This document shows, in pieces, positions 43,294 to 64,000 of a stretch of 64,000 bases of DNA. The stretch is from assembly GCA_963667295.1 (NCBI GenBank), contig OY763327.1, positions 1,060,898 to 1,124,897 of the forward strand, read 5' to 3'. The position numbers and the translations under genes are program-made. The notes under the pieces are model-generated. The model was given only the letters and a program-made list of their open reading frames with translations. It was not told where the DNA came from and made no database searches. Position 1 is the stretch's first letter. The number at the start of each line of letters is the position of its first letter. Origin of the DNA: Phycisphaeraceae bacterium (GTDB lineage: Bacteria; Planctomycetota; Phycisphaerae; Phycisphaerales; Phycisphaeraceae).

Positions 43294-44145
43294 ATGGCTC
43301 AGACACCCCCGTCACAAAACGCACAATCCCAACCACCGGCACAACTGCCCGGCGTAGACCGAATTATCGCTGTGGGGGCCGGTAAGGGGGGCGTAGGCAA
43401 GTCCACTATTTCAGTCAATCTCGCGGTCGGACTCGCACGGGCAGGGGCAAAAGTTGGAATCCTCGACGGTGATATCTACGGCCCGAGCCTGCCGACCATG
43501 CTCGGGATCAAAGGCCAGCAACCGCGTGCAGACTGCAATGTGCTGATCCCCTTTGATGTCCACGGCTTGGAAGCGATGACGCTCGGAGCACTGGTTGAAG
43601 AAGAAAAACCTTTGATCTGGCGCGGCCCCATGGCCCATGGAGCGTTTCAGCAGATTGCGACGCAAACACGCTGGGATAATCTGGATTACCTGATCATCGA
43701 CCTGCCGCCGGGTACGGGTGATGTGCCGTTAACCATGAGCCAGTTGTTGCCGCTGACCGGTGCGGTCGTCGTCTGTACGCCACAGAAGGTGGCACAGGAT
43801 GATGCACGGCGAGCGGTGCGAATGTTCCAGGCGCTGGGCGTCGAGGTGCTTGGCGTCGTTGAAAACATGAGCTACTTCATCGGCGACGACGGCAAGGAAT
43901 ACGACATCTTCGGCAAGGGCGGCGCCGAAGCGATGGCCGCGCAGATGGGCTTGCCTTCACTCGGCGCAATCCCGATCAACATGGCCCTGCGTCATAACTG
44001 CGATGCCGGCGACCCGACCGCAAACTTCACCGCGGGCGACAAACTAACTGAAGAGTTGGAAATGTTGGTCAAGAAGTTCAGCGAGCGCGTGGAAGAGCAC
44101 ATCGCCTCCGGCGGCACCGAGCAGCCGACGATAACAATCAGCTAG
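43294..44145 (+). CDS. apbC: Fe-S cluster carrier ATPase (Mrp/ApbC/NBP35 family)
   Basis: 283 aa; deviant Walker A (GKGGVGKST), ParA/MinD fold, CxxC cluster-binding motif region. Confidence 0.85.
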   Translation: MAQTPPSQNAQSQPPAQLPGVDRIIAVGAGKGGVGKSTISVNLAVGLARAGAKVGILDGDIYGPSLPTMLGIKGQQPRADCNVLIPFDVHGLEAMTLGALVEEEKPLIWRGPMAHGAFQQIATQTRWDNLDYLIIDLPPGTGDVPLTMSQLLPLTGAVVVCTPQKVAQDDARRAVRMFQALGVEVLGVVENMSYFIGDDGKEYDIFGKGGAEAMAAQMGLPSLGAIPINMALRHNCDAGDPTANFTAGDKLTEELEMLVKKFSERVEEHIASGGTEQPTITIS

Positions 44146-45364
44146 CTGGGACATCCTTGATGCTGGATGTTTCCTTTGCCGGCTTGCTCTTTTGGTTAAT
44201 TCGTTCAGATATTTGTCGTGATATCACTATTGCTGCGGAGATATCCTTGTCGGACATATGCTCCTGCAAAATAGTGATGTGTTGCTGAGCGCGCATATCA
44301 CCATTTGCATTGGCGAGAGTGAGCCAGGCATATGAAAGCTTATGGTCGACCGGTACACTATTGCCCGAGCCGTATATCAAACCTAAACTAAACTGTGCTT
44401 CAGCCAAGCCTTGATCAGCAGCTTTGCTGAACCAATTAAATGCTTGCGCATCATCTTTGGGTATAAGCTTGCTCTCACCACTTTGATAAAAGAGCCCCAG
44501 CATATGCTGTGACTTGGCATAGCCCTGCTCTGCTGCTTTGCTATACCACTTAAGTGACTCCACTTCATCTTTATCTACACCTTCGCCGATTGAATAAACA
44601 TTACCTAGCATGTGTTGTGCCCATGCATCGTTTTGATCGGCTGCCTTATGGAACCATCTCACCATCTCGGCTTTATCTTTAGGAACACCTAGTCCACGAC
44701 CTGAAATAAAAGCCATGCTTAATTGCGCCTGCAATAAACCTTGATCTGCTGCCAATCGAAACCACTTTGCTGCTTCTTTATGGTTTTGTGCCACACCCAC
44801 ACCCATTACGAACATCGTGCCTAAACGGGCCTGTGCTTCGGCGTGGCCTTGAATTGCTGCTTTCCTGAACCACTTGACCGCCTCAGTATCGTCCTTGGGG
44901 GTGCCTTCCCCATGATAGTATGCTGATCCAAGAACATACTGAGATTCAACATATCCTTGTTCGGCAGCCCGGTGAAGCCATTCAAAAGCAACGGCACTGT
45001 CGGGTTGTATACCTTCCCCGGCGGAATACAAAATTGCCAACATGTGTTGTGCGCGAGCATGTCCTCGTTCTGCGGCCTGTCTATACCACTTAAACGCTTC
45101 GGCCATGTCAGTTGGCACGCCGGTACCTTCTCGATAACAATCAGCGAGTATGACTTGGGACTCCAAGTCACCATTTTCAGCCTTCGCTCGTGTTATCTCA
45201 ACCAGATCAGATAATACGGTGGCTTTCTGACCATTAGCACAAATCGATGACAGACAAATGATGAATATACAATTAACTGTTAATAAGAACCGCATCACGA
45301 CCTCCGGGATAAGCAATAGCACAATCATTCTAATGAATGATTTCTGGTCGTGTTGCAGAAGCAT
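44138..45364 (-). CDS. Sel1-repeat (TPR-like) secreted protein
   Basis: 408 aa; signal peptide; >8 Sel1 repeats (AQ..LG.MY..G.GV..D...A..W...AA.QG). Confidence 0.75.
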   Translation of the reverse strand: MLLQHDQKSFIRMIVLLLIPEVVMRFLLTVNCIFIICLSSICANGQKATVLSDLVEITRAKAENGDLESQVILADCYREGTGVPTDMAEAFKWYRQAAERGHARAQHMLAILYSAGEGIQPDSAVAFEWLHRAAEQGYVESQYVLGSAYYHGEGTPKDDTEAVKWFRKAAIQGHAEAQARLGTMFVMGVGVAQNHKEAAKWFRLAADQGLLQAQLSMAFISGRGLGVPKDKAEMVRWFHKAADQNDAWAQHMLGNVYSIGEGVDKDEVESLKWYSKAAEQGYAKSQHMLGLFYQSGESKLIPKDDAQAFNWFSKAADQGLAEAQFSLGLIYGSGNSVPVDHKLSYAWLTLANANGDMRAQQHITILQEHMSDKDISAAIVISRQISERINQKSKPAKETSSIKDVPAS

Positions 45365-49357: not shown

Positions 49358-50182
49358 TCACATGGCTTGCGATGATGAACGAGCAATAGGCTCGCCACAT
49401 TCCGGACAGGTTATGGACTCAGTGCTCCCACGCAGGTCGTAGTTGCAGGCTGGGCAATGGCCTGGTTTGATTCCAGGAAGAAGTCTTTTAATGGCAGCTA
49501 CTATCGGCCAGACTGTGGATATGACAAATACGCTCCACATTGGAAATGTAAGTCGCCACCCAACGTTATACTTCTGAAATGCAAAGCCAAACCAAGACTT
49601 TGGTTGTATCAGGATACGCTTGGGGTATTGAATGTAAGTAGGGGGATAGGAAGGGTACGCAGCGATTTTTAGCTTCGGTTCGCGATACCTGTCACTCATA
49701 TACATCACGGCATCGCCTTTTTGAAGAGAAAATGAAAGGTGTAATCCGGTTCCGAGCATACGTGGCCAATCAGCATTGACCGACCATTTGTATGATCCAG
49801 CCCACAATACACCTGCAAGAATCATAAGCACCGTTAAGCATGCGACTGATACCCGGTACAGATCGCCTCGGATTATTCTCATCAAACGAACTTCAACAGG
49901 TCGAATCCGGTTTTGAATTCTGTCGCCTGTGTATGCTTGATCTGGCAGATGCGATCTACTGGCATAACGACGGGGCTTGAAACTGTATCGGTACACAAAT
50001 ACAGCAACGAAGCATGCGATGATCGTTGTCGGCATCCCCCACAGTGTCAAGATGCATAGATATTCATGCCACGTTGGTGGATCGCTGCTGGCAAAGGTGA
50101 TGTAATCCAGTTTGACAGCATCTTGCCAGAAGCGTTGGAGGATACTCAGGCCGCTTACAAATATCGCTGTCGCCACACCCAT
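49358..50182 (-). CDS. Hypothetical polytopic membrane protein with C-terminal zinc ribbon
   Basis: 274 aa; ends CPACNYDLRGSTESITCPECGEPIA; low GC; paralogous C-terminus to the next gene. Confidence 0.45.
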   Translation of the reverse strand: MGVATAIFVSGLSILQRFWQDAVKLDYITFASSDPPTWHEYLCILTLWGMPTTIIACFVAVFVYRYSFKPRRYASRSHLPDQAYTGDRIQNRIRPVEVRLMRIIRGDLYRVSVACLTVLMILAGVLWAGSYKWSVNADWPRMLGTGLHLSFSLQKGDAVMYMSDRYREPKLKIAAYPSYPPTYIQYPKRILIQPKSWFGFAFQKYNVGWRLTFPMWSVFVISTVWPIVAAIKRLLPGIKPGHCPACNYDLRGSTESITCPECGEPIARSSSQAM

Positions 50183-50240: not shown

Positions 50241-50567
50241 TCAAATCACCTCCCCGCACTCCGGGCACTCCAGCTTCGATAAGCCCTTGAGGATATAGCC
50301 ACACTGTCGGCATCGGCACTCACGGTCGTACCTCGGTCGTAGTATGAGTATGAATGCCAGCACGCTCGTTGCGCAGGTTAGACCTGTCATTGGGATGCCG
50401 ATCAGGCCTATTCTTATCAACTGCATCCACCAGAATCCCGGAGGCAGAGGGGCGTTCGCGACCTTGAGTTGGATGAACATAAGCAGATTACTGAACGCGA
50501 CGCCCACCACCGTGCCGCATGCCACCGCGATCAGGAACCGGCCGACGCCGCGTCTGGTTATCTGCAT
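50241..50567 (-). CDS. Small membrane protein with C-terminal zinc ribbon
   Basis: 108 aa; ends CRCRQCGYILKGLSKLECPECGEVI (same Cx2CxYxLxG...CPECGE pattern as 49358-50182). Confidence 0.45.
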   Translation of the reverse strand: MQITRRGVGRFLIAVACGTVVGVAFSNLLMFIQLKVANAPLPPGFWWMQLIRIGLIGIPMTGLTCATSVLAFILILRPRYDRECRCRQCGYILKGLSKLECPECGEVI

Positions 50568-50744: not shown

Positions 50745-50828
50745 GGCCGCGTGCCCGAGTGGACTAAGGGGGCTGATTGCAAATCAGCTAGGCTTCGCCT
50801 GTCGTGGGTTCGAATCCCACCGCGGCCT
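50745..50828 (+). tRNA. tRNA with anticodon GCA (Cys) and an atypical 15-nt variable arm; island integration target
   Basis: 7-bp acceptor ggccgcg/cgcggcc, U8; D-stem ccc/ggg with GG-containing loop; anticodon stem gctga/tcagc with loop ttGCAaa (U33, A37); variable arm taggcttcgcctgtc; T-arm gtggg-TTCGAAT-cccac; discriminator U73; CCA not encoded. Confidence 0.8.
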
Positions 50829-51000: not shown

Positions 51001-52419
51001 ATGGCAAAGATTAAGTCTTCTGATGTCACTGTCAGCTTCAAGAAAAACAACAAAGGTAGGGGGGGGACCTTCTATAAGAAGTACAAAGACCCAGCTGATG
51101 GTAAGTGGAAAGTTAAGTACTTCTGTAAGGGTAAGGGCAAGTCTGACAGGGTGGCTGAGCGTAAAGCCAAAGCTATGTGCCTGGAGTGGCAAGAAGAGCT
51201 TGAGATGGTCGCAACTATGGCACGTGTAATCAATCGGGTGAAGGCAGCCACAGCCAACGGGGGCAACCCTGATGCCTTGGGAGATACCCTGGCTGAGCAG
51301 ATGGTGAAGGCCATGATGGGCAAACCTGATACAGCTGACGCCACCCCTGTGCATCAGCTTTCAGATGAAGACCTGGAAGAGCATTTTGAAGAGCCAGATA
51401 CCTTGGCTGACCAGGCTGCCAAGCAGCTGCTCTACTCCAAGCACTCTGCTGCTCGTAAGGTAAATCCCCAAAAGGGTAAGCCCACAATTTCTACGCTGGT
51501 AGAGCAGTGGCTGAGGTATGAGAAGTCACGTGTAGCCATTGGCAAGATTGGTGAGTCTACCTATGCCGACAAAGCCAAAAATGTGAAGCCCTTTGTTGAA
51601 CATGCCAACGGGGATTACTTCAATGGCAACGTAGAAGAGATGCTAATGAGCTTCAGGGCAAAGCTAGATATGCAGCTGGCAGCTGGTGAGATTGGCTCTG
51701 GCTGGACTCATATTGGCTATACCAAAGCCACATGGCAATTCATTGATTGGTGCTATACCAACCATAAGATTAGCGAGATGCCGCGCTGCAAGAAGCCGTT
51801 TTGTGAACGGGTGCCAGTAGATGAGGGCGGTAAGCCATTACAGCTGTCAGATATTCATAAACTCTGGTCTTCAGCTGGTGACCGTATGAAGTGCTTTATT
51901 GCTTTGGCTTTGAATTGTGGCATGAAAAATGCAGACATTGCTGCACTCAAGGGCAGCCAGCTTAAGGGCAACAGGTTGATTGGCTATAGGCCAAAGACTG
52001 GTGTGCCATTCAATATGAAGCTGTGGCCTGTAACAGTAGAGCTTATTGAGAAGTGCAGAGATAACCAGGGTGATGATGAGCTGCTGTTTGTGAATAAAGA
52101 TGGTGATGCAGTTAAGAGTGGTGTTATCAGCAGTCTCTTCAAGAAAGTCTCAACCAAGGCAGATGTGATTGTCGGTGAGACAAAGGGTGGTAATCCCAAG
52201 GGGGCCACTTTTGAGCAGCTGAGAGATAGCAGCATTGACCTGGTTGATAAGCAGTTGTTTGAGCTTGGCTATGATCGCGGTTTACTGCAGGTATTCCAGC
52301 AGCATGCCGACCCAAGCACTGCACGATACTATCGAGATAAGACACCGGAGCGTTTGCAGATTAAAAAACTGGATGAACTGACCGACTATCTGGGTGAGGT
52401 GTACGGGCTGAAGCTTTGA
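51001..52419 (+). CDS. Tyrosine-type site-specific integrase (phage integrase family)
   Basis: 472 aa; C-terminal catalytic region (LRDSSIDLV...HADPSTARYYRD with the terminal Tyr); lower GC than flanking chromosome; 172 bp downstream of the tRNA. Confidence 0.85.
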   Translation: MAKIKSSDVTVSFKKNNKGRGGTFYKKYKDPADGKWKVKYFCKGKGKSDRVAERKAKAMCLEWQEELEMVATMARVINRVKAATANGGNPDALGDTLAEQMVKAMMGKPDTADATPVHQLSDEDLEEHFEEPDTLADQAAKQLLYSKHSAARKVNPQKGKPTISTLVEQWLRYEKSRVAIGKIGESTYADKAKNVKPFVEHANGDYFNGNVEEMLMSFRAKLDMQLAAGEIGSGWTHIGYTKATWQFIDWCYTNHKISEMPRCKKPFCERVPVDEGGKPLQLSDIHKLWSSAGDRMKCFIALALNCGMKNADIAALKGSQLKGNRLIGYRPKTGVPFNMKLWPVTVELIEKCRDNQGDDELLFVNKDGDAVKSGVISSLFKKVSTKADVIVGETKGGNPKGATFEQLRDSSIDLVDKQLFELGYDRGLLQVFQQHADPSTARYYRDKTPERLQIKKLDELTDYLGEVYGLKL

Positions 52420-52810: not shown

Positions 52811-53653
52811 TTATGCCGCGGCCAGCGGCGGTCCGGTTATAGGTTTTCCATCATACGCTTCGTCCGGCGTCCGTCCAGCGAGTGTCGAGTGCGGACGCTC
52901 GGTGTTGTAGAACCGCAGCCATTCATTGATCCCGGCGCGAGCTTCGCTGCCTCTGTCCCACGCGTGCAGGTACACGCATTCGTACTTCAGGCTCCGCCAC
53001 AGACGTTCGATGAACACGTTGTCCATCCATCGGCCTTTGCCGTCCATCGATACCTTCGCGCCCGCGTTCTTCACCGCTTCGGTCCATTCCAGGCCGGTGA
53101 ACTGGCTGCCCTGATCGGTGTTGATGATCTGCGGCGGGCCGTGCTTGCTCAGCGCTTCTTCCAACGCCTCGACGCAGAACGACGCCTCCATCGTGTTGCT
53201 CAATCGCCAAGCCAGCACCTTCCTGCTGTGCCAGTCCATGACCGCAACGAGGTACAAAAAGCCGCGTCGCATCGGGATGTATGTGATGTCGGCGCACCAC
53301 ACATGACCCGGCTGATCAATCTTCAGATTCCGCAGCAGGTACGGATACACCTTGTTTTCAAGGCATTTGACGCTGGTCTTCGGGGCCTGGTAGATCGGCG
53401 TCAAACCCATCTGGCGCATCAATCGACGCACACGCTTGCGGCCGACGTTGTAGCCAAGCCGACGCAACCAACGCATCATCTGCCGGCTGCCGTAGAACGG
53501 CGTGCACAGGAACTGTCGGTCGATCAGACGCATCAGACGCTCGTTGAACGCATCCTCACCGCTCGGCTTGTAGTACAACGTGCTGCGGCTCAAGCCCAGC
53601 AACTCACACTGCCGGCGGACCGGAATCAGGCTGTGCTTCGGTTCGATCATCAT
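52811..53653 (-). CDS. IS3-family transposase OrfB (DDE integrase core)
   Basis: 280 aa; rve/DDE core (DITYIPMRRGFLYLVAVMDWHSRKV...TDQGSQF...ERLWRSLKYECVY). Confidence 0.85.
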   Translation of the reverse strand: MMIEPKHSLIPVRRQCELLGLSRSTLYYKPSGEDAFNERLMRLIDRQFLCTPFYGSRQMMRWLRRLGYNVGRKRVRRLMRQMGLTPIYQAPKTSVKCLENKVYPYLLRNLKIDQPGHVWCADITYIPMRRGFLYLVAVMDWHSRKVLAWRLSNTMEASFCVEALEEALSKHGPPQIINTDQGSQFTGLEWTEAVKNAGAKVSMDGKGRWMDNVFIERLWRSLKYECVYLHAWDRGSEARAGINEWLRFYNTERPHSTLAGRTPDEAYDGKPITGPPLAAA

Positions 53654-53663
53654 CCGCTTCTGA

Positions 53664-53954
53664 TCAATCTGGAAACACCGACTTTTTTTTGAGCCAGTCC
53701 AACTCCACCTTCAACCGGCCGATCTCCCGATACAACCGGTCCACCAGCTCCGCCTGATCCGCCGCGTCCAGCTCACGCCGACGCCCGAACACCTCCGGCA
53801 ACGATTCGAGCAACTGCTTCTTCCACTGCGTGATCTGGTTGGCGTGCACCTCGTACTCGCCGGCCAACTCGGCTACCGTCTTCTGCCCCTTGATCGCCTC
53901 CAACGCCACCTTCGCCTTGAAGTCCGCCGAAAACCGCCGTCGCTTCCTCGCCAT
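53664..53954 (-). CDS. IS3-family transposase OrfA (HTH)
   Basis: 96 aa; IS3 HTH_Tnp_1 (RRFSADFKAKVALEAIKGQKTVAELAGEYEVHANQITQWKKQ); ends in KKKS at the frameshift heptamer. Confidence 0.85.
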   Translation of the reverse strand: MARKRRRFSADFKAKVALEAIKGQKTVAELAGEYEVHANQITQWKKQLLESLPEVFGRRRELDAADQAELVDRLYREIGRLKVELDWLKKKSVFPD

Positions 53955-54100
53955 CTGATTCGTCTCCTGTTAGGGATCGAATCCACCTTAACGACGCGCC
54001 CAGTTTTTGGGTAGTAGTACATGTAGCCGTTGAGGCGTGTTTTCGCGGCGTGTGGGGCCGGCGGCGGGTTGAGGTTGGTCGATCTGCTGTCCAAGTGTTT

Positions 54101-55273
54101 TCAAGCGAACAATGCCAACTGCGTCGGCGGCGGATCGGGCGGTTTGGTGTACGGTTCGTCCAGCCAACGCCACAGGTCCCGGTACACCAGCAGGTTCATC
54201 CGCAGCATGGCCGCGAGGTTGGACAGGCTCCAGCCGAAGCTTGATCGCAGCTTCAGCAGCTTGAGGATCAGCATCGCGATCAGTGCTGTCCAAAGCTGGA
54301 CCCGCACCGCGTTGGCGCTGGTGCCCAGGAACGTCTTGACGTGCAGGTTCTGCTTCAACGCTTTGAAGAACAGCTCGATCTGCCAGCGTTCTTTGTAGAT
54401 CGCCGCCAGCGTCGTCGCGCCGAACGTCAGGTGGTTGCTCAGCAGCTCGATCGTTCGGCGGTTCGCTTCGTCCCACACCACCACCCGGCGCAGCCGATGC
54501 GGGCAGGCGGCGTGGCTTCTTGTGCCCGCCAGCTCGATGACCTGGTCGGAGAGGATGTTACGATTCATCGGCACGGCACGCTCTTGGATCACGTTGTAGT
54601 CCAGGTTCGACTTGCACCGCGTGACGAACCACACGCCTTGCTCGCACCACGTGCCAAACAGGCCAAAGTCGGTGTAACCGCGGTCCACCGCCACGACCGT
54701 GCCCGGCTCAAAACGCAGTGTTTTAGCGGGGTTCACATCGTGCACCTTGCCCTCGGTCACCAGCGCCCAGCTCGGTAAGCAGCCTTGATGATCCAACTGA
54801 AGGTGCAGCTTCACCGCGCCCTTGGTCCGCCGGAACCGCGCCCAGTCGAACACCTGGGCACACAAGTCGATCACCGTCGCGTCCAGACTCACCAGCGGGT
54901 TCTTGAAGCGGAACCGACGCCCCCGGATGGCCTGCCGACCCGCCAACACCCGCGCCTGATCGAGCACCTGGTAGAACACCGCCTCGTAAAGCTCCCACGG
55001 CCGATGGGCGTTGGCGTAGCTGAGCGTCGACCGCGCCGGCGCCGCCGACACGCCCAGGTGACGCAGCCTGCCCATCGCGCACGCCAGGCCGCCGCAGACC
55101 TCCCGCAGCGAGTGCGCCCCGCCCAACTGCGCAAAGAGCATCGCCACCAGTTGGTCCCAGCAGGTAAACCCCTTCGCCCCACGCTCGGCATCAAACTCAC
55201 GCACCCGCCGATCAAACCCCGGCCGATCGATCAGACTCAACACTTGTGCAAACAGGCTTGCGACGCGTACCAT
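54101..55273 (-). CDS. IS4-family DDE transposase
   Basis: 390 aa; DDE_Tnp_1 hallmarks; element ends not confidently resolved; its 3' end lies only ~7 bp from the IS3 right end (abutting or nested insertion). Confidence 0.8.
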   Translation of the reverse strand: MVRVASLFAQVLSLIDRPGFDRRVREFDAERGAKGFTCWDQLVAMLFAQLGGAHSLREVCGGLACAMGRLRHLGVSAAPARSTLSYANAHRPWELYEAVFYQVLDQARVLAGRQAIRGRRFRFKNPLVSLDATVIDLCAQVFDWARFRRTKGAVKLHLQLDHQGCLPSWALVTEGKVHDVNPAKTLRFEPGTVVAVDRGYTDFGLFGTWCEQGVWFVTRCKSNLDYNVIQERAVPMNRNILSDQVIELAGTRSHAACPHRLRRVVVWDEANRRTIELLSNHLTFGATTLAAIYKERWQIELFFKALKQNLHVKTFLGTSANAVRVQLWTALIAMLILKLLKLRSSFGWSLSNLAAMLRMNLLVYRDLWRWLDEPYTKPPDPPPTQLALFA

Positions 55274-55387: not shown

Positions 55388-56407
55388 CTATTTTTTTTGG
55401 CTGTTATTGTTCGCAAGGCTCCTCTCAACCCGACCCTTTTTTTCAGAGGCTCCAGTTGCCACATGCCAATACCATCTACCGATATCGTCGTAACACTGTG
55501 CTGCAGGATAATGGTTAATAATCTGGTCATAGCAACGGAGTGCCTCATTTAAAGAGTCGGCCTTTTTATCTCCAGCAAACCTTGTCGCTTCTCCATAATA
55601 AGAATCTCCCGCTATATACCAACAAGTTCCAACATCAAAGAGGGCCCAAAATTCACGCCAATACTTTTCCTCATTATCCCGGCTGATTTTCGGCATATCA
55701 AGACCATACTGATCAATATGATCTTGCTGCTGTTCCTTAGCAAAAGACTGATATTGATCAATGCAAGAAAATGCTAACTTTCTCGCAATACTATAATCTT
55801 CAGATTTAAGATACTCCCATGCCAATGTTGTATACTGGCCTGAAGTTTGTGGGAATTGAGATTGGTTTTTCTTTTCCACCAAAACAAGGGCCAATTCACA
55901 TAACGGACGCACAGATATATCAACTTGCTGCACTTCTCCGTGAACAACAATCTCACTAATCCAATGAGCATCTGGGTACAAACTAATTACTTCCTTCAGT
56001 AGGTTTTTAGAGTCAATATAATTGCCTTTGCGTCGAAGGCAATCGCCCTTCAAAAACAAACAGACGCCGCTCATATTAGTATCGGTTGTTTGTGTGATAT
56101 ATTGATCAACTAATTGAATAACACGATCGCATTCGTCCTTCTCTCTCGCTTCCCAGATTTCATCAATTATAGAAATTGGTCTAGATGATTGATTCTCCAT
56201 GATAGCAATCTCGGAATTATGATATCCTGTGGTTCTACTTTGTGTATAAGATACCGAATTGGTATCTATCACTGAAGATAACTGTTCGGCTTGTGGTTCT
56301 CGAACATGATTATCATCACTTCCACTATCAGATTGCGATGAACATCCAATGATCAACAATAATTGAAACAGATAGACCGCATACAATGTAAGTTTGGCAA
56401 TATGCAT
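55388..56407 (-). CDS. Hypothetical lipoprotein with TPR-like helical repeats
   Basis: 339 aa; lipobox LLLIIGC; AT-rich (~40% GC) cargo gene. Confidence 0.5.
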   Translation of the reverse strand: MHIAKLTLYAVYLFQLLLIIGCSSQSDSGSDDNHVREPQAEQLSSVIDTNSVSYTQSRTTGYHNSEIAIMENQSSRPISIIDEIWEAREKDECDRVIQLVDQYITQTTDTNMSGVCLFLKGDCLRRKGNYIDSKNLLKEVISLYPDAHWISEIVVHGEVQQVDISVRPLCELALVLVEKKNQSQFPQTSGQYTTLAWEYLKSEDYSIARKLAFSCIDQYQSFAKEQQQDHIDQYGLDMPKISRDNEEKYWREFWALFDVGTCWYIAGDSYYGEATRFAGDKKADSLNEALRCYDQIINHYPAAQCYDDIGRWYWHVATGASEKKGRVERSLANNNSQKK

Positions 56408-56434: not shown

Positions 56435-57103
56435 TCAATTTGACTCTACAAGTATGTAATAATACACGGCGATATTACCTGGGCGTGTCTCTGTCGATCC
56501 TGCAGGCTGTGTCCTTACTTCATCCTGGATCGAATCAAACCATCTAGGCATATTTGGGTTGGTTGTGATTTGCGTTCTTGAGTTATCATGTGCTTGTGAC
56601 ACCATTGGAACAGAATGTGTATGTGATATTATGGAATCGGGCTGATAGTCACCAACTACACGATTTAATCCATCAGGATCCTCAAGACCGTCACTACGAA
56701 TCAATCCTGGTTCAAATGCATTTAACCCTCGTAAAAATGCACCACGTAAATCAGGAAGTTTTGTACGCCCTGTTATTTTTGCATAATCTGAGTCTGTGGA
56801 TATTTCGCGGCCATCCGCTGGCATCCAACGTGTTTTCACGCTGTCTCCATATGTTTCGTAAAGTTGATCCGGAGAAAGCGCACATGCGAATATTGTACCG
56901 ATGGGAACTCCAGGTGAACCGGGTGGGCCCTGGGGCCCTGATACGCCTTGAGGGCCAACAGCACCTTGATTTAAGTTTAATGCAGAAATAGTAACCAAAC
57001 CGGCTACAATACCGATGATCGTTGTAATCATTGCGATCCATGTACTGTAAATAGTTTTTGTATTAGAAAAGTGTTTGCTGCTTGTATGATCTGATTTAGC
57101 CAT
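56435..57103 (-). CDS. Membrane-anchored collagen-repeat protein with phage tail-collar domain
   Basis: Start taken at MAKSDHTSS (ATG 57103; ORF open to 57178); TM helix, GPQGVSGPQGPPGSPG Gly-X-Y run, then tail-collar signature (PIGTIFA...KLPDLRGAFLRG). Confidence 0.6.
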   Translation of the reverse strand: MAKSDHTSSKHFSNTKTIYSTWIAMITTIIGIVAGLVTISALNLNQGAVGPQGVSGPQGPPGSPGVPIGTIFACALSPDQLYETYGDSVKTRWMPADGREISTDSDYAKITGRTKLPDLRGAFLRGLNAFEPGLIRSDGLEDPDGLNRVVGDYQPDSIISHTHSVPMVSQAHDNSRTQITTNPNMPRWFDSIQDEVRTQPAGSTETRPGNIAVYYYILVESN

Positions 57104-58027
57104 ATGTTCTACTCGTTCCTGCTTGTACAATATGATGCATATAGACAAAGCTGACCATGAACCGATTATTATAACCACAAAAGAAAGGGCCGTTCAGATA
57201 AATATGTATAGCAATAATTACTCAATAAATAAAGGCACATAGCCAATCCATATAAGAAGTATCCCCAGTGGGGGACATCGCAGACCAGAGAATATGGAGT
57301 TGATGGAAAGCTGGACTATGGGTCGCCGAGTGGATAAGGCCGTAGATCGACAAGACCAGGTCGCCGAAGAGGTTCTGGATGGTGTAAAAAACTGGATCAT
57401 GTGTATTCTCATTGCGTTGATCTTGATGTGTTGAGTGTTTGGATCAGACAGGTTGTGGGCGTCAAGTTGATTTGGGGCTGGCGAGTTTGGACTTACTTAG
57501 AGTTTCCGAATTCTCAGCCAGCCAGCGGACCTTCTCATGGAAAGGCACACCGTTGGCCGGTTGCAGCAGCATCACGACGCCGACGCAGCCGACTTGGCCT
57601 TCATCCGTAAGGGGGGGGGTATGGGTCCATTAGTATGGGTATTCTGTTGCCGGTCTTAGCAGGATTGATGAAGAGTATGATACTCCCGATGTCAGGCTGT
57701 AAAAATAGACATAAAGCAGATATTGTTTAACGATATAAAGTTGTGAAATTGCTGACTATACAGTTATTCTTTCCAATCAGGACTCAGTCCACTCAAAGTC
57801 AATACAATTAAGGACTTGCTAAACCGGTTATTAAAAAGTAAAATTTTTAGCAGTCTCTCCGACCAGTTTCATCTATGGTCGTCGTTCGGTACGGAAGTTT
57901 ATAACGGGTACTGTCAGGATTCGCGGCGTATTAGGACGTTTCTAGGGAAGTTTTAAACTGGCTTTATCATCTCAGCCCGCGTCGGGTGAGAAGATCGTAG
58001 AAAATTCACTTAAGAAAGGGGCTTTGG

Positions 58028-59434
58028 GTGGCGATTCAAATGCGAATCAGGTTTTTGATATGTGTGATTTCCACGATGCTGATACTCTCTCTCTTCGTCG
58101 GCTGCAAGGTCCAGCCGGTGGATTACGATCAAGGTATGGAAGCGTGGCGGGCCTGCTGGCTACAAACCCAATATCTTGATCTAACCACCAATTCGGCTCT
58201 GATCCAACGGTTAGAGGATTTGCGTAATCAGATTCGTTCGATGGGGGCGGATGAGTGGTGGCGCCAGCGTAATGATGTTTACAACGCTCTGGTTTCACTG
58301 CGTGAAGCCAAGCACAGTTTTGATACGCAACTCGCCCGTGCGGGCAACACTGTAGACCGCGAGAGTGCAAATGATTTGTACAAAGCTACGGTCAAGGGTA
58401 TTCGGACCGAAGAAGATGCTCGACAAGCTGCTCCGAAGATCGACCAACTCGTAGATATCCAGAAACGACTCGACAGACTAAATAATATCGGTTTGAATCC
58501 GAGCTCAGAAGCCGCAAAGCAGATAGATACATTTGATCAACAATTAGCCTCCTTGTCGGCTGACGAAATCCTACAAAAGCTAGGTCGGCTCGAACAACTC
58601 ATTGAGAGAATCTTAGCGGTTCAAAAAGCCTTGAATGAACGGTTGGGCCAATTAGATTCAGCGGCGCAGCGCCAACAAGCGGCTGACCTTCAAAAGGAGA
58701 TCGAGGAGGCGAACTCAAACGAAGATGTGGACCAGATCGTGAGACAGTTCAAGCAGCTTTTCGGAGGTAAGGTTGCAATAGTCCCGGGACCTGATAATAC
58801 GTCCGTGAGTAAGGCAACCCCGGGGGGGGTAAGTCAGACTCAAAACTCAGACCAAACCGGCGTGGTGAGTCCCAATCCAAATATCAGCCAAGACCAAATC
58901 AAATCCGCGCTTAGTAAAGAGGAGGAATTGACAGTTCCCGGTTCTCAAGAGTTAGGCAATCCATTTGAGAGTCCATTTTATAAGCGTTATGAAATAGATA
59001 TCGCACCTTATGGGATCACAGAGTCAGATGGTAAAGCCAAGATTGACGCCAAGTGTATCACTCGTGAGATCCGAGCTAAATTGCAACTAAAACCAGATGG
59101 CGAGTTCAGTTCTATCAAAGGAACAAAAGTGCTTCGGGAATACCAGTTGGGGCTGATCCAAGGTGCCAAAGAAACATGGACCGAGAATGAAGCCAATGTA
59201 TCAATGGAGCTAGTGGGGGTACCAGAAAACGCCAGAGTGATCATGCATTCTTGGCACGCGCTGCCGGTGCCGGCGAGTAACGGCAAGGTTATTGAAGGCA
59301 CCACGATTGATCAGACCGTGGGCCAGTTTCGGCTGCCGGCAGGTCGTTACTACATACTCGGACAAGGTGAGACAGACTGGGGCTATGGTTTCGACGTGAT
59401 GGGAGCGATGACCATCAAGCATCCAGTTGAATGA
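58028..59434 (+). CDS. Hypothetical lipoprotein with long coiled-coil region and ~150-aa C-terminal domain (cassette gene 1)
   Basis: 468 aa; GTG start 6 nt after AAAGGGG; lipobox LSLFVGC; heptad-rich middle; contains a G8 tract at 58822-58829. Confidence 0.5.
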   Translation: MAIQMRIRFLICVISTMLILSLFVGCKVQPVDYDQGMEAWRACWLQTQYLDLTTNSALIQRLEDLRNQIRSMGADEWWRQRNDVYNALVSLREAKHSFDTQLARAGNTVDRESANDLYKATVKGIRTEEDARQAAPKIDQLVDIQKRLDRLNNIGLNPSSEAAKQIDTFDQQLASLSADEILQKLGRLEQLIERILAVQKALNERLGQLDSAAQRQQAADLQKEIEEANSNEDVDQIVRQFKQLFGGKVAIVPGPDNTSVSKATPGGVSQTQNSDQTGVVSPNPNISQDQIKSALSKEEELTVPGSQELGNPFESPFYKRYEIDIAPYGITESDGKAKIDAKCITREIRAKLQLKPDGEFSSIKGTKVLREYQLGLIQGAKETWTENEANVSMELVGVPENARVIMHSWHALPVPASNGKVIEGTTIDQTVGQFRLPAGRYYILGQGETDWGYGFDVMGAMTIKHPVE

Positions 59435-59463
59435 TAACAGATTAGAATTGTTATAAGGGATGC

Positions 59464-62022
59464 ATGGGGGCGTCGCAAAGAGCTGGGGATTACATGATAC
59501 CAGTGGAGACAGTCAAGCAGACACTGAACGACTTAGAACGATGGTATTGGTGCCATGGAATCGAGCGCATCAACCGGACAGACTATCCTTTGCGGCCTGA
59601 TTGGGCTGCTGAAATCTACACAATCCAACGAACAGCCACGCAGATCCTTGAGCGGCAGCACTACCCGCGTCCCGCTCTTGCGATCTACGGTGAGAGCCAG
59701 GTTGGTAAGTCCACAATACTCATGACCGAACTGGATGATACTCGGGCGATCGCCGATACATCCGGTGAAAACACCGTCCTGTCGGCAATCCAGTGGGACG
59801 ACCGACCTGTTACTTGGGGCGACTGGCGTTCTTGGCACGATTCTGCTGACTATATCGTAACGAAGACCGAACCGCTGAACCCCTATTCGGCGGGTACCGA
59901 CGCGACTGCAGTACCGACGCGTTTCACTCTCACCACGAACGTAACTGAGCCACAGATACCTTATCAGATTAGGATGCAATCTGTTGATAGCTTGATCGCC
60001 GCGCTGTACGCAGGCCTTTCGGATCATGGCCAAATCGACGCTCCTAATGGAAAACCGCGAGGTATTAAGAAGATCGAAATTACGCCTGGAGAACCTGATG
60101 CCGACCTCCAACGAGCTTTGATGTTGTTGGAAGCGGTGCGGCAGATGGTGGCGGAAAAGGAACTACTAATTAATGAAGCCGGTCGCCGCGTGCACGAGCT
60201 TGAGCCATTCTCCATCAATGAATTGTTTCCGTGTACTTATAATCAAGCCCGACGCTGGGTGGGTGAGTATCTGTTTGGCAAGTCACACTCGCTGTTTGAT
60301 AACATTCTCAGTGAGCACCTACGACTTATCGAACTGCTTGAATTTTTGAACCAGTACAACACCGTTCTCTGTAGTCCCCTTGTGGCGAGGCGGATATTAA
60401 AGTTCGATCATAGTGGTGAAGAAACATTATCGGAGATGATGTTCTATGAGCGTTCGAATGAGAACGGTAGGCGTGAACTCGCGATGGCCATGGAGCACGA
60501 ATATGATCCCAGCGAGAGGTGGCAAGTTATGGATCGCGACAGACTGCCCATCACCCGGGTAGTAGCGTTCCAGTTGGTAGTGCGAGAATTAGTAGTCCCG
60601 GTACGTGAGGACGTGCTGGGACGAATCAACGCCCCTTTTGCTGATGTCCTTCGACACGCAGATATCATCGATTTCCCTGGCATCTCCATTATGCCTGATC
60701 GTCACCGAGGTCAATCTATCGACAATGACGAACGGCGAGCATTTGTACTCAAATTCGGCAAGACCGCCTGTGTGCTTCGCGACTTTGTCGCTAGTGAACT
60801 TATTGATGGTATCCTTTTTGTCTGTACTGCCGAGGGTAAGATACGGGATTCCACCTCAGACTTGTTCACCCGAGTCATTGAACGTTGGGTTGGTAAAACC
60901 ACGTCTCAAGCTATTTCACTTAGTGAGGTCGAGCAGAACACACCTACGCAAGAGCGGCCTGTTTGGTGGGTAGCGACCCGTTGGAATGCGGTCGAAGCGG
61001 CCAAGGCCACGACGACCATCTCTGCGGGGATCGGTTCGATCCAGCAAGGTCTGCAGCACTGTCGTTTTAGACTTTATGCGACACATTATCCCATCTGGAA
61101 TGAAATGATCGCCAGTCCAGAAGAAGAGCAGCGAATCCGCTCTCTTATGAGAGGGCGGCTAAGGAAGCATATCCGGGATGACGGTGCCCAAAAGTCTTTT
61201 GACAATATCAAACTCACTATCTTAAAACCCGGTGAAGCTTTGGAGAGCACCCGGTGTATCTGGGATGATGTGAGTCACGTCTACAAAGACTTTGTCACTC
61301 ACGTCGACCTGACCGAGAGGCGAATCGCGAATCTTCGGGACGATATCCGTCGTCTTCTACAACGCAATGAAGCATATCCCGGTGGTGAACAGGTCACACA
61401 GAATAATCAGCGCCGGGTAAATCTCCGCAAACTGGAATACTGCCTGTTGCATACCCAAATCAAACGGCAGCTTGTACTAAGCGTGTCTCCTTTACCACGT
61501 CACCTGCTTGCTCAGTTAGCCGGTTCAGTAGAAGCTGGGGATTATGCCTCGGGTTTGTTCAAGGCCATGATGAGGTCCCTGCGTGATCAGTGGCGCGAAC
61601 AAGCTCGGGATGAGTTTGCACAGTATCTGTCAGCGTCTGAAGTTGGTGAATTGACAAAAGCTCTTGAGGACTCGGTCTGGATGGCAACGAGTGCGAACGA
61701 TTCCATGAGAACCGAGTTCTACGATTTGTTTCCTCGGGGACGGGCAGTCGACTCCAATCGGTATCATCGTCTCGATGGATTGGGGCAATTGATGGCTATG
61801 CGACTGGGGGACTGGCTAACAGGCTTGGCCGAGGAACCTCACGGACTACGAGATGAGGACATTCCTCACATAATCGAGCGGTTAGTTACACAGGATGCGA
61901 CCTACGGCACCCGGGACCCTTTACCGGGCGATACGCAGCTATCAGCAATCTCAGGGCTTAGTCAGTTCTGGGATTCGATAGATTTGGTGAATGGAGTTGA
62001 AGAGGGGGATACACAACTATGA
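59464..62022 (+). CDS. Large P-loop NTPase, possibly dynamin-like GTPase (cassette gene 2)
   Basis: 852 aa; Walker A/G1 LAIYGESQVGKST (~aa 77), dynamin-G3-like hhDxPG motif ADIIDFPGIS (~aa 397); no close family recognisable by eye; stop overlaps next start (ATGA). Confidence 0.55.
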   Translation: MGASQRAGDYMIPVETVKQTLNDLERWYWCHGIERINRTDYPLRPDWAAEIYTIQRTATQILERQHYPRPALAIYGESQVGKSTILMTELDDTRAIADTSGENTVLSAIQWDDRPVTWGDWRSWHDSADYIVTKTEPLNPYSAGTDATAVPTRFTLTTNVTEPQIPYQIRMQSVDSLIAALYAGLSDHGQIDAPNGKPRGIKKIEITPGEPDADLQRALMLLEAVRQMVAEKELLINEAGRRVHELEPFSINELFPCTYNQARRWVGEYLFGKSHSLFDNILSEHLRLIELLEFLNQYNTVLCSPLVARRILKFDHSGEETLSEMMFYERSNENGRRELAMAMEHEYDPSERWQVMDRDRLPITRVVAFQLVVRELVVPVREDVLGRINAPFADVLRHADIIDFPGISIMPDRHRGQSIDNDERRAFVLKFGKTACVLRDFVASELIDGILFVCTAEGKIRDSTSDLFTRVIERWVGKTTSQAISLSEVEQNTPTQERPVWWVATRWNAVEAAKATTTISAGIGSIQQGLQHCRFRLYATHYPIWNEMIASPEEEQRIRSLMRGRLRKHIRDDGAQKSFDNIKLTILKPGEALESTRCIWDDVSHVYKDFVTHVDLTERRIANLRDDIRRLLQRNEAYPGGEQVTQNNQRRVNLRKLEYCLLHTQIKRQLVLSVSPLPRHLLAQLAGSVEAGDYASGLFKAMMRSLRDQWREQARDEFAQYLSASEVGELTKALEDSVWMATSANDSMRTEFYDLFPRGRAVDSNRYHRLDGLGQLMAMRLGDWLTGLAEEPHGLRDEDIPHIIERLVTQDATYGTRDPLPGDTQLSAISGLSQFWDSIDLVNGVEEGDTQL

Positions 62023-64000
62023 TCCATCTGCGTGCCAATACAGGAACCCGTGCCTTCATTGTCTCGCCATGCACGAACGATTCCAACCGAGGATACACCC
62101 GTACCCTGCCTGATAAGTCATGGGTGCTGACAAGCCGAGCTGAACTCGATGGTAAGTGGTGGCACACTGTAGTCATCGAGACCAACACCGGTACCGCCCA
62201 ACGTGGGATTCGCTGGCCAGTTGAACAAGGTAAATCGGACCAAGACATTAATCCATCCTACCGTAGCTCTCAGCCCAATGTACCCCAAGAAAACCCTGAT
62301 AAGGTGTCTTGGGCGTGTGAGATCTGTAAACAGAAGCTTGATGTGGAAGTCAAGTGGGAGACGCACCGGGATAAGAGCGTGGTATACGACTTGGTAGTTG
62401 ATTTAGGCACTTCACGCTCCTCGGCGCTATTCGTAAAACAGGGCGAAGCGGGCGCAAATATTTCTAAACAGGTGGCCCCGTTGCCTTTCTGGCCAGAAGG
62501 TATATCTGGAGACACCCTCGACAACAAAATATCTGCTCCGCGGGGTCGCGACTATTCTGTGGTCCCATCATTAGCTTTCCTTTACCCGCACACATACGAC
62601 GCTCCAGAGATTTGGGAACCGTTGCTTTACAACGCCCGAGTACGGTTCAAGAACAGTACCCAAAACTCTCGCTGGTTGGATCCAATCTACACTTGGCTAC
62701 ACTTTCGATCGGGTAAACAGGACGACTATCAGGCAATCACCCAGCGCCCGTTGATGTTTATCCGGGCCTGCCCATTGTTGCTGAGCGCACACTCGAGCAC
62801 AAGAGAATCCAGTAGTCTGTGGAACCGTTTAATCAATGTCTACAACATCGGAGCGAGTACCACCGCAAGCTACCTGCAACCTGCTCCCAAGCGCTACCTC
62901 GCTAGTGAGAATCCAATATTGTGGGGATTCCCGATGGGATTGCAGTCAGACAAGGTGCATAACCCATTGATCGCTCGGATTATGCACACCAATGGATATG
63001 ACTGGCAACTCGGTCTTATCCACGAGCTTTATTACCCGACTGGTGCTCATGGTGGCGTCTGGCGTTTTCCTAGGCACGGATCACTAGTCTGGTATTGTTT
63101 GGGTATTTTAGAGCAGGCTTGGGAACAACTTCAGTCTGATTGGCTGGTTCGACACTTCGAGGGACCAAAAGTTAATGCCGCTCGCATCTATCGTCGGTTC
63201 GGTACGATCATTGCTACAATGCCCCCAGGCTGGCCTCCACGGGCAAAAATCCGTTGGCGTGCGGCTTGGCAAAGGGCGATTGACTTATTTCGCCAACTAC
63301 ATATAGAAACCAACAAGCTGAACACCAACCAGTCTGATGGCGTTTGGCCTGTTCTGGGTGAGGATGAGATAGATGAAGCATCTGCGGCCCAGATACCATT
63401 CGTAGGCGCGCTGTTGGAGGGCGGTGGCGAGTCTCTATCCAAGCTATGCACTGCGCTACGTCGTAATGGGAATCCGAGTAAGAATAGATTCCGTGTCATG
63501 ACGATTGATGTGGGTGGGGGGACCACCGACTTGTCTATCTGTCGCTACGAGGTTTTGGACAACTACAACATTCAAGCTTCGATCGTGATGTCACACAGTA
63601 GTGTTACTGCGGGCGATGAGGTGGTGTATGAGTTGTTGGAGAAGCTAATCATCCCAAAACGCCTTGAGAATATCCCTGACTCGGAGCTTAGAGATCAGGT
63701 GAGATTGCTTCTCAATCAGCCCGATGAGCAACTAGACGAACCTTGGAAAATCCAGATGCACAAGGACCAGTGTTATCTAGTTTTCACGGCGCTTGCCCAC
63801 GAGCTTCTCAAGCAGATGGCAGCCTCGAGCAAGGCAGAGCGTGAATCAGGCATCGTAGTCATAGACGCTAAGAATACCGACGCCGGTATGGGACTTGAAT
63901 ACATCCAGTCGTTGTTAGATGCGGCATCATCTGATCCATCGAAATTGGGAAATGACGAGATAACCTTAGACCGAGGAGCAGTAGTTAAAATATTCTTATC
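62019..64000 (+). CDS. Hsp70/actin-fold (ASKHA) ATPase-like protein, 3'-truncated by window end (cassette gene 3)
   Basis: At least 660 aa, no stop before the window end (so absent from the ORF track); phosphate-1-like VYDLVVDLGTSRSSALF (~aa 135) and phosphate-2 FRVMTIDVGGGTTDLSI (~aa 495) motifs; ATG overlaps the upstream stop. Confidence 0.55.
   Translation, partial: MIHLRANTGTRAFIVSPCTNDSNRGYTRTLPDKSWVLTSRAELDGKWWHTVVIETNTGTAQRGIRWPVEQGKSDQDINPSYRSSQPNVPQENPDKVSWACEICKQKLDVEVKWETHRDKSVVYDLVVDLGTSRSSALFVKQGEAGANISKQVAPLPFWPEGISGDTLDNKISAPRGRDYSVVPSLAFLYPHTYDAPEIWEPLLYNARVRFKNSTQNSRWLDPIYTWLHFRSGKQDDYQAITQRPLMFIRACPLLLSAHSSTRESSSLWNRLINVYNIGASTTASYLQPAPKRYLASENPILWGFPMGLQSDKVHNPLIARIMHTNGYDWQLGLIHELYYPTGAHGGVWRFPRHGSLVWYCLGILEQAWEQLQSDWLVRHFEGPKVNAARIYRRFGTIIATMPPGWPPRAKIRWRAAWQRAIDLFRQLHIETNKLNTNQSDGVWPVLGEDEIDEASAAQIPFVGALLEGGGESLSKLCTALRRNGNPSKNRFRVMTIDVGGGTTDLSICRYEVLDNYNIQASIVMSHSSVTAGDEVVYELLEKLIIPKRLENIPDSELRDQVRLLLNQPDEQLDEPWKIQMHKDQCYLVFTALAHELLKQMAASSKAERESGIVVIDAKNTDAGMGLEYIQSLLDAASSDPSKLGNDEITLDRGAVVKIFL

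Follow-up and report, generated by a model that had tools for sequence, protein, structure and literature searches.

The window analysed here is a 64,000-nt stretch of DNA from a Phycisphaeraceae bacterium (assembly GCA_963667295.1, contig OY763327.1, positions 1,060,898-1,124,897 of the forward strand), which carries at its distal end a cassette of three genes related to the srfABC operon. Gene 1 (58028-59434, + strand, GTG start) encodes a predicted lipoprotein of 468 aa. Gene 2 (59464-62022, + strand) encodes an 852-aa P-loop NTPase whose C-terminal half is helical, assigned below to the dynamin superfamily as a divergent SrfC-family member, and gene 3 (62019-64000, + strand) encodes an SrfB-family protein with a predicted Hsp70/actin-fold ATPase core of the acetate and sugar kinases/Hsc70/actin (ASKHA) type, 660 of its 902 codons lying inside the window. 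The reading frame of gene 3 continued from 62019 through the window end (660 codons) without a stop; because the full-length protein in the database, P0003, is 902 aa long and carries PF07520 in its precomputed annotation, the end of the gene is expected near 64727. Genes 1 and 2 are 29 nt apart, and the stop of gene 2 and the start of gene 3 overlap as ATGA (62019-62022). Gene 2 contains the motifs GESQVGKST (residues 76-84) and DFPG (residues 403-406), and gene 3 the motifs DLVVDLGTSRS (residues 124-134) and IDVGGGTTDLS (residues 496-506). An earlier note on this DNA had described the three co-directional open reading frames (ORFs), their junctions and these motifs, and all of them were verified.

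Gene 3 was the most readily assigned of the three, with a score of 73.7 bits against the Pfam SrfB model (PF07520; cut-off 27.1, E 1.2e-20). P0003 had one database relative alone, P0004, at 31% identity, and direct searches of the PDB sequences with genes 2 and 3 returned nothing meaningful. An SrfB profile used in the same type of search gave 48 matches, all 48 of them to ASKHA proteins (Hsp70, MreB, FtsA and EutJ). With hhalign, SrfB aligned to the DnaK nucleotide-binding domain at 78-81% probability (E 1.2e-5 at 81%) and collinearly over DnaK residues 13-389, pairing VTyPsGW with ITVPAYF, DEAVASQ with NEPTAAA and VGAAL with IGAAV, together with the phosphate-2 and adenosine motifs of both proteins. 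The predicted phosphate-1, phosphate-2 and adenosine motifs of gene 3 follow one another in the correct ASKHA order, and residues D128, G130, D497, G499-T502, D504 and G686 were invariant in 48 SrfB sequences. This profile evidence is singly modest and mutually consistent, and it argues for an ASKHA core in gene 3, in agreement with the Hsp70/actin-type core interrupted by a long insert that had been proposed from the motifs. Compared with Hsp70/DnaK-type ASKHA proteins (including YegD, MreB and FtsA), gene 3 shows the DnaK order of motifs from phosphate-1 to VGAAL, whereas its phosphate-1/phosphate-2 spacing is roughly double and it carries a ~120-residue N-terminal beta-rich extension and a distinct C-terminal domain. 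The alignments end at the boundary of the nucleotide-binding domain, with no Hsp70 substrate-binding domain detectable in gene 3, and no DnaJ or GrpE domains were found among the neighbours of the gene 2-gene 3 pair, suggesting that gene 3 is Hsp70-like in its ATPase core only.

Gene 2 itself scored 19 bits against the Pfam Virul_Fac (SrfC) model (PF10139), under the 28.1-bit cut-off, and its orthologue from locus L001, the contig of a metagenome-assembled genome that also encodes P0004, scored 21 bits. Word-seeded homologue searches with the single sequence or with a 51-sequence profile brought back the query alone. When 1.84 billion representatives were searched exhaustively with phmmer, 174 relatives were recovered, one alone of them below 1e-30. 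PF10139 was matched by 50 of the 51 sampled relatives at E ≤ 0.001, and the family profile aligned to Klebsiella SrfC with an hhalign probability of 99.4% (E 9.4e-22) over 509 columns. Because the family matches PF10139 and aligns with Klebsiella SrfC at this level, gene 2 is, as judged by profile homology, a highly divergent SrfC of a type that Pfam annotation currently misses. A match of the SrfC profile to PDB entry 9hxn ('Ec1Ap', E 0.02) was set aside; this entry represents the HEPN protein ApeA, and the alignment, over a helical stretch, was judged to be due to chance.

The structural class of gene 2 came from an AlphaFold2 (AF2) model built with a 51-sequence alignment, which reached a predicted local distance difference test (pLDDT) score of 79.4 and a predicted template-modelling score of 0.82. 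All Foldseek matches of this model in the PDB at E ≤ 0.001 belonged to the dynamin superfamily, led by SynDLP (6e-6) and followed by IniA, MFN2, BDLP and Fzo1; MxA, the Campylobacter dynamin-like protein (DLP) pair and dynamin appeared at E values up to 0.01. The model combines the large G domain and the helical neck or stalk that define the dynamin-superfamily fold, in line with the dynamin-like call made earlier from the motifs. Throughout the gene 2 family, the G1 motif (GxxxxGKS), the G3 motif (DxPG) and a switch-I-like motif were all invariant, and T152, which lies in the conserved stretch NPYNxGxDASGCVTRF, is a reasonable G2 candidate. With bacterial DLPs and mitofusins (BDLP, DynA, IniA, SynDLP, Campylobacter DLP1/2 and Fzo1/MFN), gene 2 shares the P-loop and DxxG, and many of the bacterial DLPs are, like gene 2, encoded as a pair with a second NTPase. 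It differs from them in its identity of 9-15%, in having no canonical G4 and no identified paddle or transmembrane region, and in being paired with an Hsp70-like ATPase instead of a second dynamin. Template-modelling scores of the gene 2 model against DLP structures were 0.18-0.38, these low values being explained by a different arrangement of the helical domains.

The cassette is conserved beyond this genome. In L001, homologues of gene 1 and gene 2 (the latter at 28% identity, 1e-87) precede SrfB in the order seen in the window, so that the three-gene synteny of the window holds at 28-34% identity, and the next SrfC relatives likewise lie directly 5′ of an SrfB gene. A metagenome scan with the SrfB alignment yielded 80 loci. 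By ORF and hidden Markov model analysis, SrfC was immediately 5′ of SrfB and co-directional with it in all loci with upstream sequence visible (73/73), the median gap between them being 13 nt, and in 12 further loci the contig ended at SrfB. The cassette described in the earlier note was thus borne out by L001 and, for genes 2 and 3, by the 73 informative loci. The order C then B marks a large clade in environmental metagenomes; this clade was widespread across contigs from many different samples, which appear from their identifiers to be of peat, lake, soil and marine origin. In contrast, annotated proteobacterial plasmids showed the order (SrfA)-SrfB-SrfC-hypothetical in 5/5 cases, continuing in three of the five (Klebsiella, Haematospirillum and Cereibacter) with genes for a vWA protein, an ABC ATPase, an ABC permease and a SUMF1/FGE protein, the ABC genes being of the Lol/FtsX type. 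A neighbour-joining tree of 51 SrfB proteins separated the canonical clade from the C-B clade and placed P0003 from the window together with P0004 from L001 as the basal, deepest C-B branch. Identity of the window proteins to the canonical ones was ~18-21%.

The gene 1 protein opens with a hydrophobic leader that closes on LFVGC and is the sole hydrophobic segment of the protein. It also has a coiled-coil region, a linker of low complexity and, at the C-terminus, a domain of ~150 aa whose last residues are G-x-T-D-W-G-x-x-F. The sequences LFVGC in gene 1 and LVGC in its L001 homologue indicate a conserved lipobox. These two positional homologues matched by BLASTP at 2e-17 over the C-terminal domain, with a weak N-terminal match. 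Searches of gene 1 against Pfam, NCBIfam and PADLOC gave no family match, those in PADLOC being sub-significant coiled-coil matches only. About 15 proteins with lengths of 400-590 aa, encoded close to SrfC-SrfB, share this C-terminal domain. The gene 1 family, which thus accompanies the pair at about 14 loci besides the window, was present in 7 of the 21 loci with wide flanks. The possibility that gene 1 is a disguised SrfA was rejected on the lack of any NCBIfam or phmmer match, an hhalign probability of 0.2% and a different membrane topology. Gene 1 is a putative lineage-variable accessory lipoprotein facing outside the cytoplasm.

A candidate for the SrfA position emerged from clustering of the neighbouring proteins. 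Members of one cluster (c2) were encoded at 56 of 75 non-redundant loci and at 36 of the 38 loci whose sequence extends 4 kb or more downstream of SrfB. A transmembrane helix at about residues 170-200, as in canonical SrfA, was found in 52/56 members, and c2 aligned to the SrfA N-terminal domain with an hhalign probability of 92.8% (E 4e-7), which together identify c2 as SrfA-like. The C-termini of c2 proteins are often Big_5 Ig-like. Between SrfB and the SrfA-like gene there is usually a coiled-coil protein of ~350 or ~1100 aa (for example, L001 7753-11061 and, in cluster c3, L036 6587-7630) with matches only to SMC/Rad50-type coiled-coils; in L001, the SrfA-like gene is the second after SrfB, behind a 1102-aa protein of this type, whose LmuB and SMC matches we attributed to coiled-coil composition. 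A SrfA-like gene is predicted to lie just past the window end in the present genome.

Domains found among the C-B operon-mates were Big_5, Laminin_G, PEGA, M23 peptidase, FHA, Ser/Thr kinase, FGE-sulfatase and Ter-system domains. Near the pair were Ser/Thr-kinase-FGE-sulfatase fusions (9 loci), FHA proteins (4 loci) and stand-alone FGE-sulfatase genes, examples of these genes being L045 15869-17845 (− strand), L075 2349-3704 (+ strand) and L001 16467-17580 (+ strand). They echo both the SUMF1 gene of the canonical operons and the phospho-signalling genes of the type VI secretion system type that are noted near Xenorhabdus srfABC (PMC6950479). In a few loci, Ter genes (TerD, TerC, PRTase_2, ATPgrasp_Ter and TRSP; for example, L085 5608-6753) were found among the SrfC-SrfB operon-mates, and on the Klebsiella plasmid a 'tellurite resistance domain protein' is encoded directly 5′ of srfA; our literature search found no paper with both TerD and SrfB.

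Set against the known srfABC operons (Salmonella, Xenorhabdus, Klebsiella and Alphaproteobacteria; SrfA NF040486, SrfB PF07520, SrfC PF10139), the locus shares a Pfam SrfB protein, a partner homologous to SrfC over ~500 residues including the NTPase domain, and the adjacency and co-transcription of the two genes, and the relatives of the window cassette carry a SrfA-like bitopic protein and FGE/SUMF1-type genes. It differs in its order, gene 1-SrfC-SrfB instead of the canonical A-B-C, in a gene 2 that remains under the Pfam cut-off and in a 5′ gene for a lipoprotein unrelated to SrfA. The vWA and ABC genes were not seen among the sampled C-B operon-mates, and the SrfA-like C-termini of the C-B clade are Ig-like, whereas the canonical ones are lipocalin. 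Taken together, the homology and gene-order data identify genes 2 and 3 as the conserved NTPase core of a srfABC-type operon in the order C-B. The earlier note had recognised no described system in this combination; since gene 3 is an SrfB and gene 2 an SrfC, the cassette is instead a srfABC core with its two genes swapped. What is new here is a gene-order-permuted, very divergent variant of the SrfABC family, the family itself being already known.

The srfABC operon has been known since 2000 and is annotated in many proteobacteria. In Salmonella it is regulated by SsrB and FlhDC, and mutation of srfC or srfB impairs swarming (PMC4219756). An AlphaFold3 model in a 2026 preprint presents SrfA as a bitopic membrane platform that binds SrfB and then SrfC (bioRxiv 10.64898/2026.09.18.752743). 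Our literature search found no paper tying SrfB or SrfC to dynamin and none describing the C-B clade. From the folds of the two proteins, their membrane-anchored companion and the envelope-related and signalling genes nearby, we consider it probable that the cassette belongs to a srfABC-type, membrane-anchored envelope machine with two NTPases, an estimate that covers both the identity of the system and its proposed mechanism. By analogy, an envelope machine driven by the NTPase pair appears to be the most likely function. A SrfA-like anchor would recruit both cytoplasmic NTPases to the inner membrane, where the dynamin-like protein would tether, remodel or repair the membrane through nucleotide-driven assembly. 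The Hsp70-like partner would govern the assembly or the conformation of the dynamin-like protein, and variable extracytoplasmic modules, such as gene 1, SrfA-like C-termini of the Ig-like or lipocalin type and FGE-type domains, would link the pair to what happens in the envelope. A membrane-remodelling NTPase pair had been the second choice of the earlier note; of that suggestion, the fit to the folds stood and was better than that of the anti-phage alternative, whereas the remodelling activity itself remains an analogy.

Several observations weigh against this envelope-machine interpretation. The canonical G4 motif, (N/T)KxD, is absent throughout the gene 2 family, so that gene 2 may not be a GTPase and may use either GTP or ATP, and the sequence of gene 2 shows no identifiable membrane-binding element. 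The AF2 model of gene 3, built from a two-sequence alignment, had a pLDDT of 31.6 and did not confirm the ASKHA fold structurally. Gene 1 has no cytoplasmic part able to touch the NTPases directly, and no SrfA-like gene is present inside the window, the corresponding region lying beyond position 64000. The SrfB tree is unbootstrapped and midpoint-rooted. For the C-B clade, the mechanism would follow from fold analogy and gene neighbourhood, and the sole functional data for SrfABC call it a cytotoxic or insecticidal tripartite toxin (PMC6950479), which is a different kind of activity.

More tentatively, SrfC-SrfB may be the engine of a widespread and so far unrecognised class of membrane-anchored machines composed of a dynamin-like and an Hsp70-like protein. 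In such machines, exchangeable sensors outside the cytoplasm would report an attack on the envelope by phage, predators or toxins, the candidates being lipoproteins of the gene 1 type, SrfA-like proteins that carry an Ig-like or lipocalin domain, fusions of FGE and kinase, and Ter proteins, and the NTPase pair would remodel or seal the membrane. If this were true, SrfABC would be mislabelled as a 'virulence factor' and a 'toxin', and the island copy in the window would represent an envelope-immunity module exchanged by horizontal transfer.

The explanation preferred in the earlier note was an anti-phage or conflict system on an integrative island. In a system of this kind, the extracytoplasmic partners would sense envelope or phage cues and the NTPases would assemble to protect the membrane, as does DynA of B. 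subtilis, or to kill the cell by abortive infection. The genomic setting is compatible with this proposal. The 58-64 kb region has a GC content of 0.50-0.52 compared with 0.55-0.61 over most of the window, confirming the low GC (~50%) that had been described before for this tRNA-associated region. A tRNA-Cys gene (50745-50828, + strand; found by ARAGORN and the sole Rfam match) is the probable site at which the low-GC region integrated and is followed directly on its 3′ side by a tyrosine recombinase (51001-52419, + strand; Pfam Phage_integrase, E 1.4e-9). Two insertion sequences, recognised from ORFs and Pfam, occupy 52811-55273 on the − strand: an IS3-type element (orfB 52811-53653, orfA 53664-53954) and a DDE_Tnp_1/DUF4372 transposase gene (54101-55273). 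A search of 50.7-64 kb for an att-type direct repeat matching the 3′ end of tRNA-Cys was negative, which leaves an island plausible, with its distal end outside the window. The cassette probably arrived together with the low-GC region beside tRNA-Cys.

Support for the anti-phage proposal also comes from PMC8844932 and PMC12998192, which document bacterial dynamin-like proteins in phage defence, from the GTPase-plus-HSP70 conflict systems proposed on genomic grounds (Kaur, Burroughs, Iyer & Aravind 2020, eLife; PMC7159879), from the FHA, kinase and FGE-type domains near the pair, which recur in conflict systems, and from the strong differences in partner genes among loci. The systems of PMC7159879 resemble the present one in combining a TRAFAC-type GTPase with HSP70 in operons with variable partners, among which FGE-type and kinase modules recur. 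They are set apart by their description, which has other GTPase families together with tubulin or with GrpE and DnaJ, none of them present here; the words dynamin, SrfB and SrfC do not occur in the text of that paper. Against the proposal, PADLOC-DB 2.0 returned sub-significant local matches only for genes 1-3, for canonical SrfB and SrfC and for the partner families. The best match of gene 1 (PbeC, E 0.0058) was to a coiled-coil, gene 2 had none, the match of gene 3 to PDC-M61B (E ~1e-4) was confined to the phosphate-2 motif and judged to be due to chance, and that of the 1102-aa L001 protein to LmuB (E 3e-5) reflected coiled-coil composition. Since this database dates from 2023, absence from it is weak evidence. 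No recognisable defence genes were found beside the cassette within the window, no nuclease, NADase or pore-type effector was seen among the operon-mates, which are of envelope and signalling character, a scan of IMG/VR viral contigs gave no SrfB relatives, and the literature search found no paper tying SrfB or SrfC to phage defence. No positive evidence for an anti-phage role was thus obtained, and we regard this role as unlikely.

A further alternative, which we judge improbable, is that the three proteins form an exported tripartite toxin like that described for SrfABC of Xenorhabdus, released for instance through membrane vesicles and harmful to eukaryotic cells. SrfABC of X. stockiae, the only case with such an activity on record, was reported to have cytotoxic effects on insect and mammalian cells and to kill insects when injected, all three proteins being needed for full activity (PMC6950479), and vesicle-mediated export has been proposed (bioRxiv 10.64898/2026.09.18.752743). 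However, the cytotoxicity assays used proteins over-expressed in E. coli, and according to the same preprint Salmonella SrfABC is not translocated by the type III secretion system. By eye, the translations of genes 2 and 3 have no visible N-terminal hydrophobic leader, and both proteins have the folds of cytoplasmic NTPase machines. In addition, gene 1 is unrelated to SrfA, and the C-B clade is widespread in many samples and is not limited to host-associated bacteria. Finally, the idea that the genes are chance neighbours on a decaying mobile element with no joint function, which could draw on the insertion sequences and mosaic GC upstream and on the extreme divergence of genes 2 and 3 (one close relative among ~15 billion proteins), is effectively refuted by the intact ORFs with their ATGA overlap, the retention of every family-invariant catalytic residue, the synteny of all three genes at 28-34% identity in a second genome and the universal adjacency of genes 2 and 3 (73/73 informative loci).

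The remaining features of the region are recorded here as observations in their own right. The 850-nt gap 5′ of gene 1 (57179-58027) contains a run of nine G residues at 57611-57619 and, at 57294-57434, a short ORF of 46 codons whose product has a hydrophobic tail, and promoter and terminator scans found sites no more numerous than in shuffled sequence. The gene at 56435-57178 (− strand) lies within the lowest-GC patch of the window (0.43) and encodes a 247-aa protein that has an N-terminal hydrophobic segment, a collagen-like stretch (GPQGVSGPQGPPGSPGVP) and no Pfam match. The adjacent gene at 55388-56407 (− strand) encodes a tetratricopeptide repeat (TPR) lipoprotein of 339 aa, which equals the length of the TPR protein encoded 3′ of srfC in the Haematospirillum operon; as a counterpart of that 339-aa TPR gene of canonical operons it was rejected, the two being unrelated by BLASTP. 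Just 5′ of tRNA-Cys, where GC is already ~0.51, two adjoining genes (49358-50182 and 50241-50567, both − strand) encode membrane proteins, each with a terminal CxxC...CPECGE zinc-ribbon-like motif. Further upstream, at a local GC of ~0.49, the gene at 44138-45364 (− strand) encodes a 408-aa protein with Sel1-like repeats recognised by eye ('A..W..KAA.QG...AQ..LG').

SrfABC has carried a 'virulence factor' annotation for 25 years without a mechanism. The predicted folds of its large proteins, a dynamin-like NTPase and an Hsp70-like ATPase, together with a distribution far beyond host-associated bacteria, recast SrfABC as a probable general NTPase machine of the envelope, and reading the pair as dynamin plus Hsp70 makes the family testable. 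The copy in the window, with one relative at 28-34% identity, represents the most divergent known branch and helps to define the true invariants of the family.

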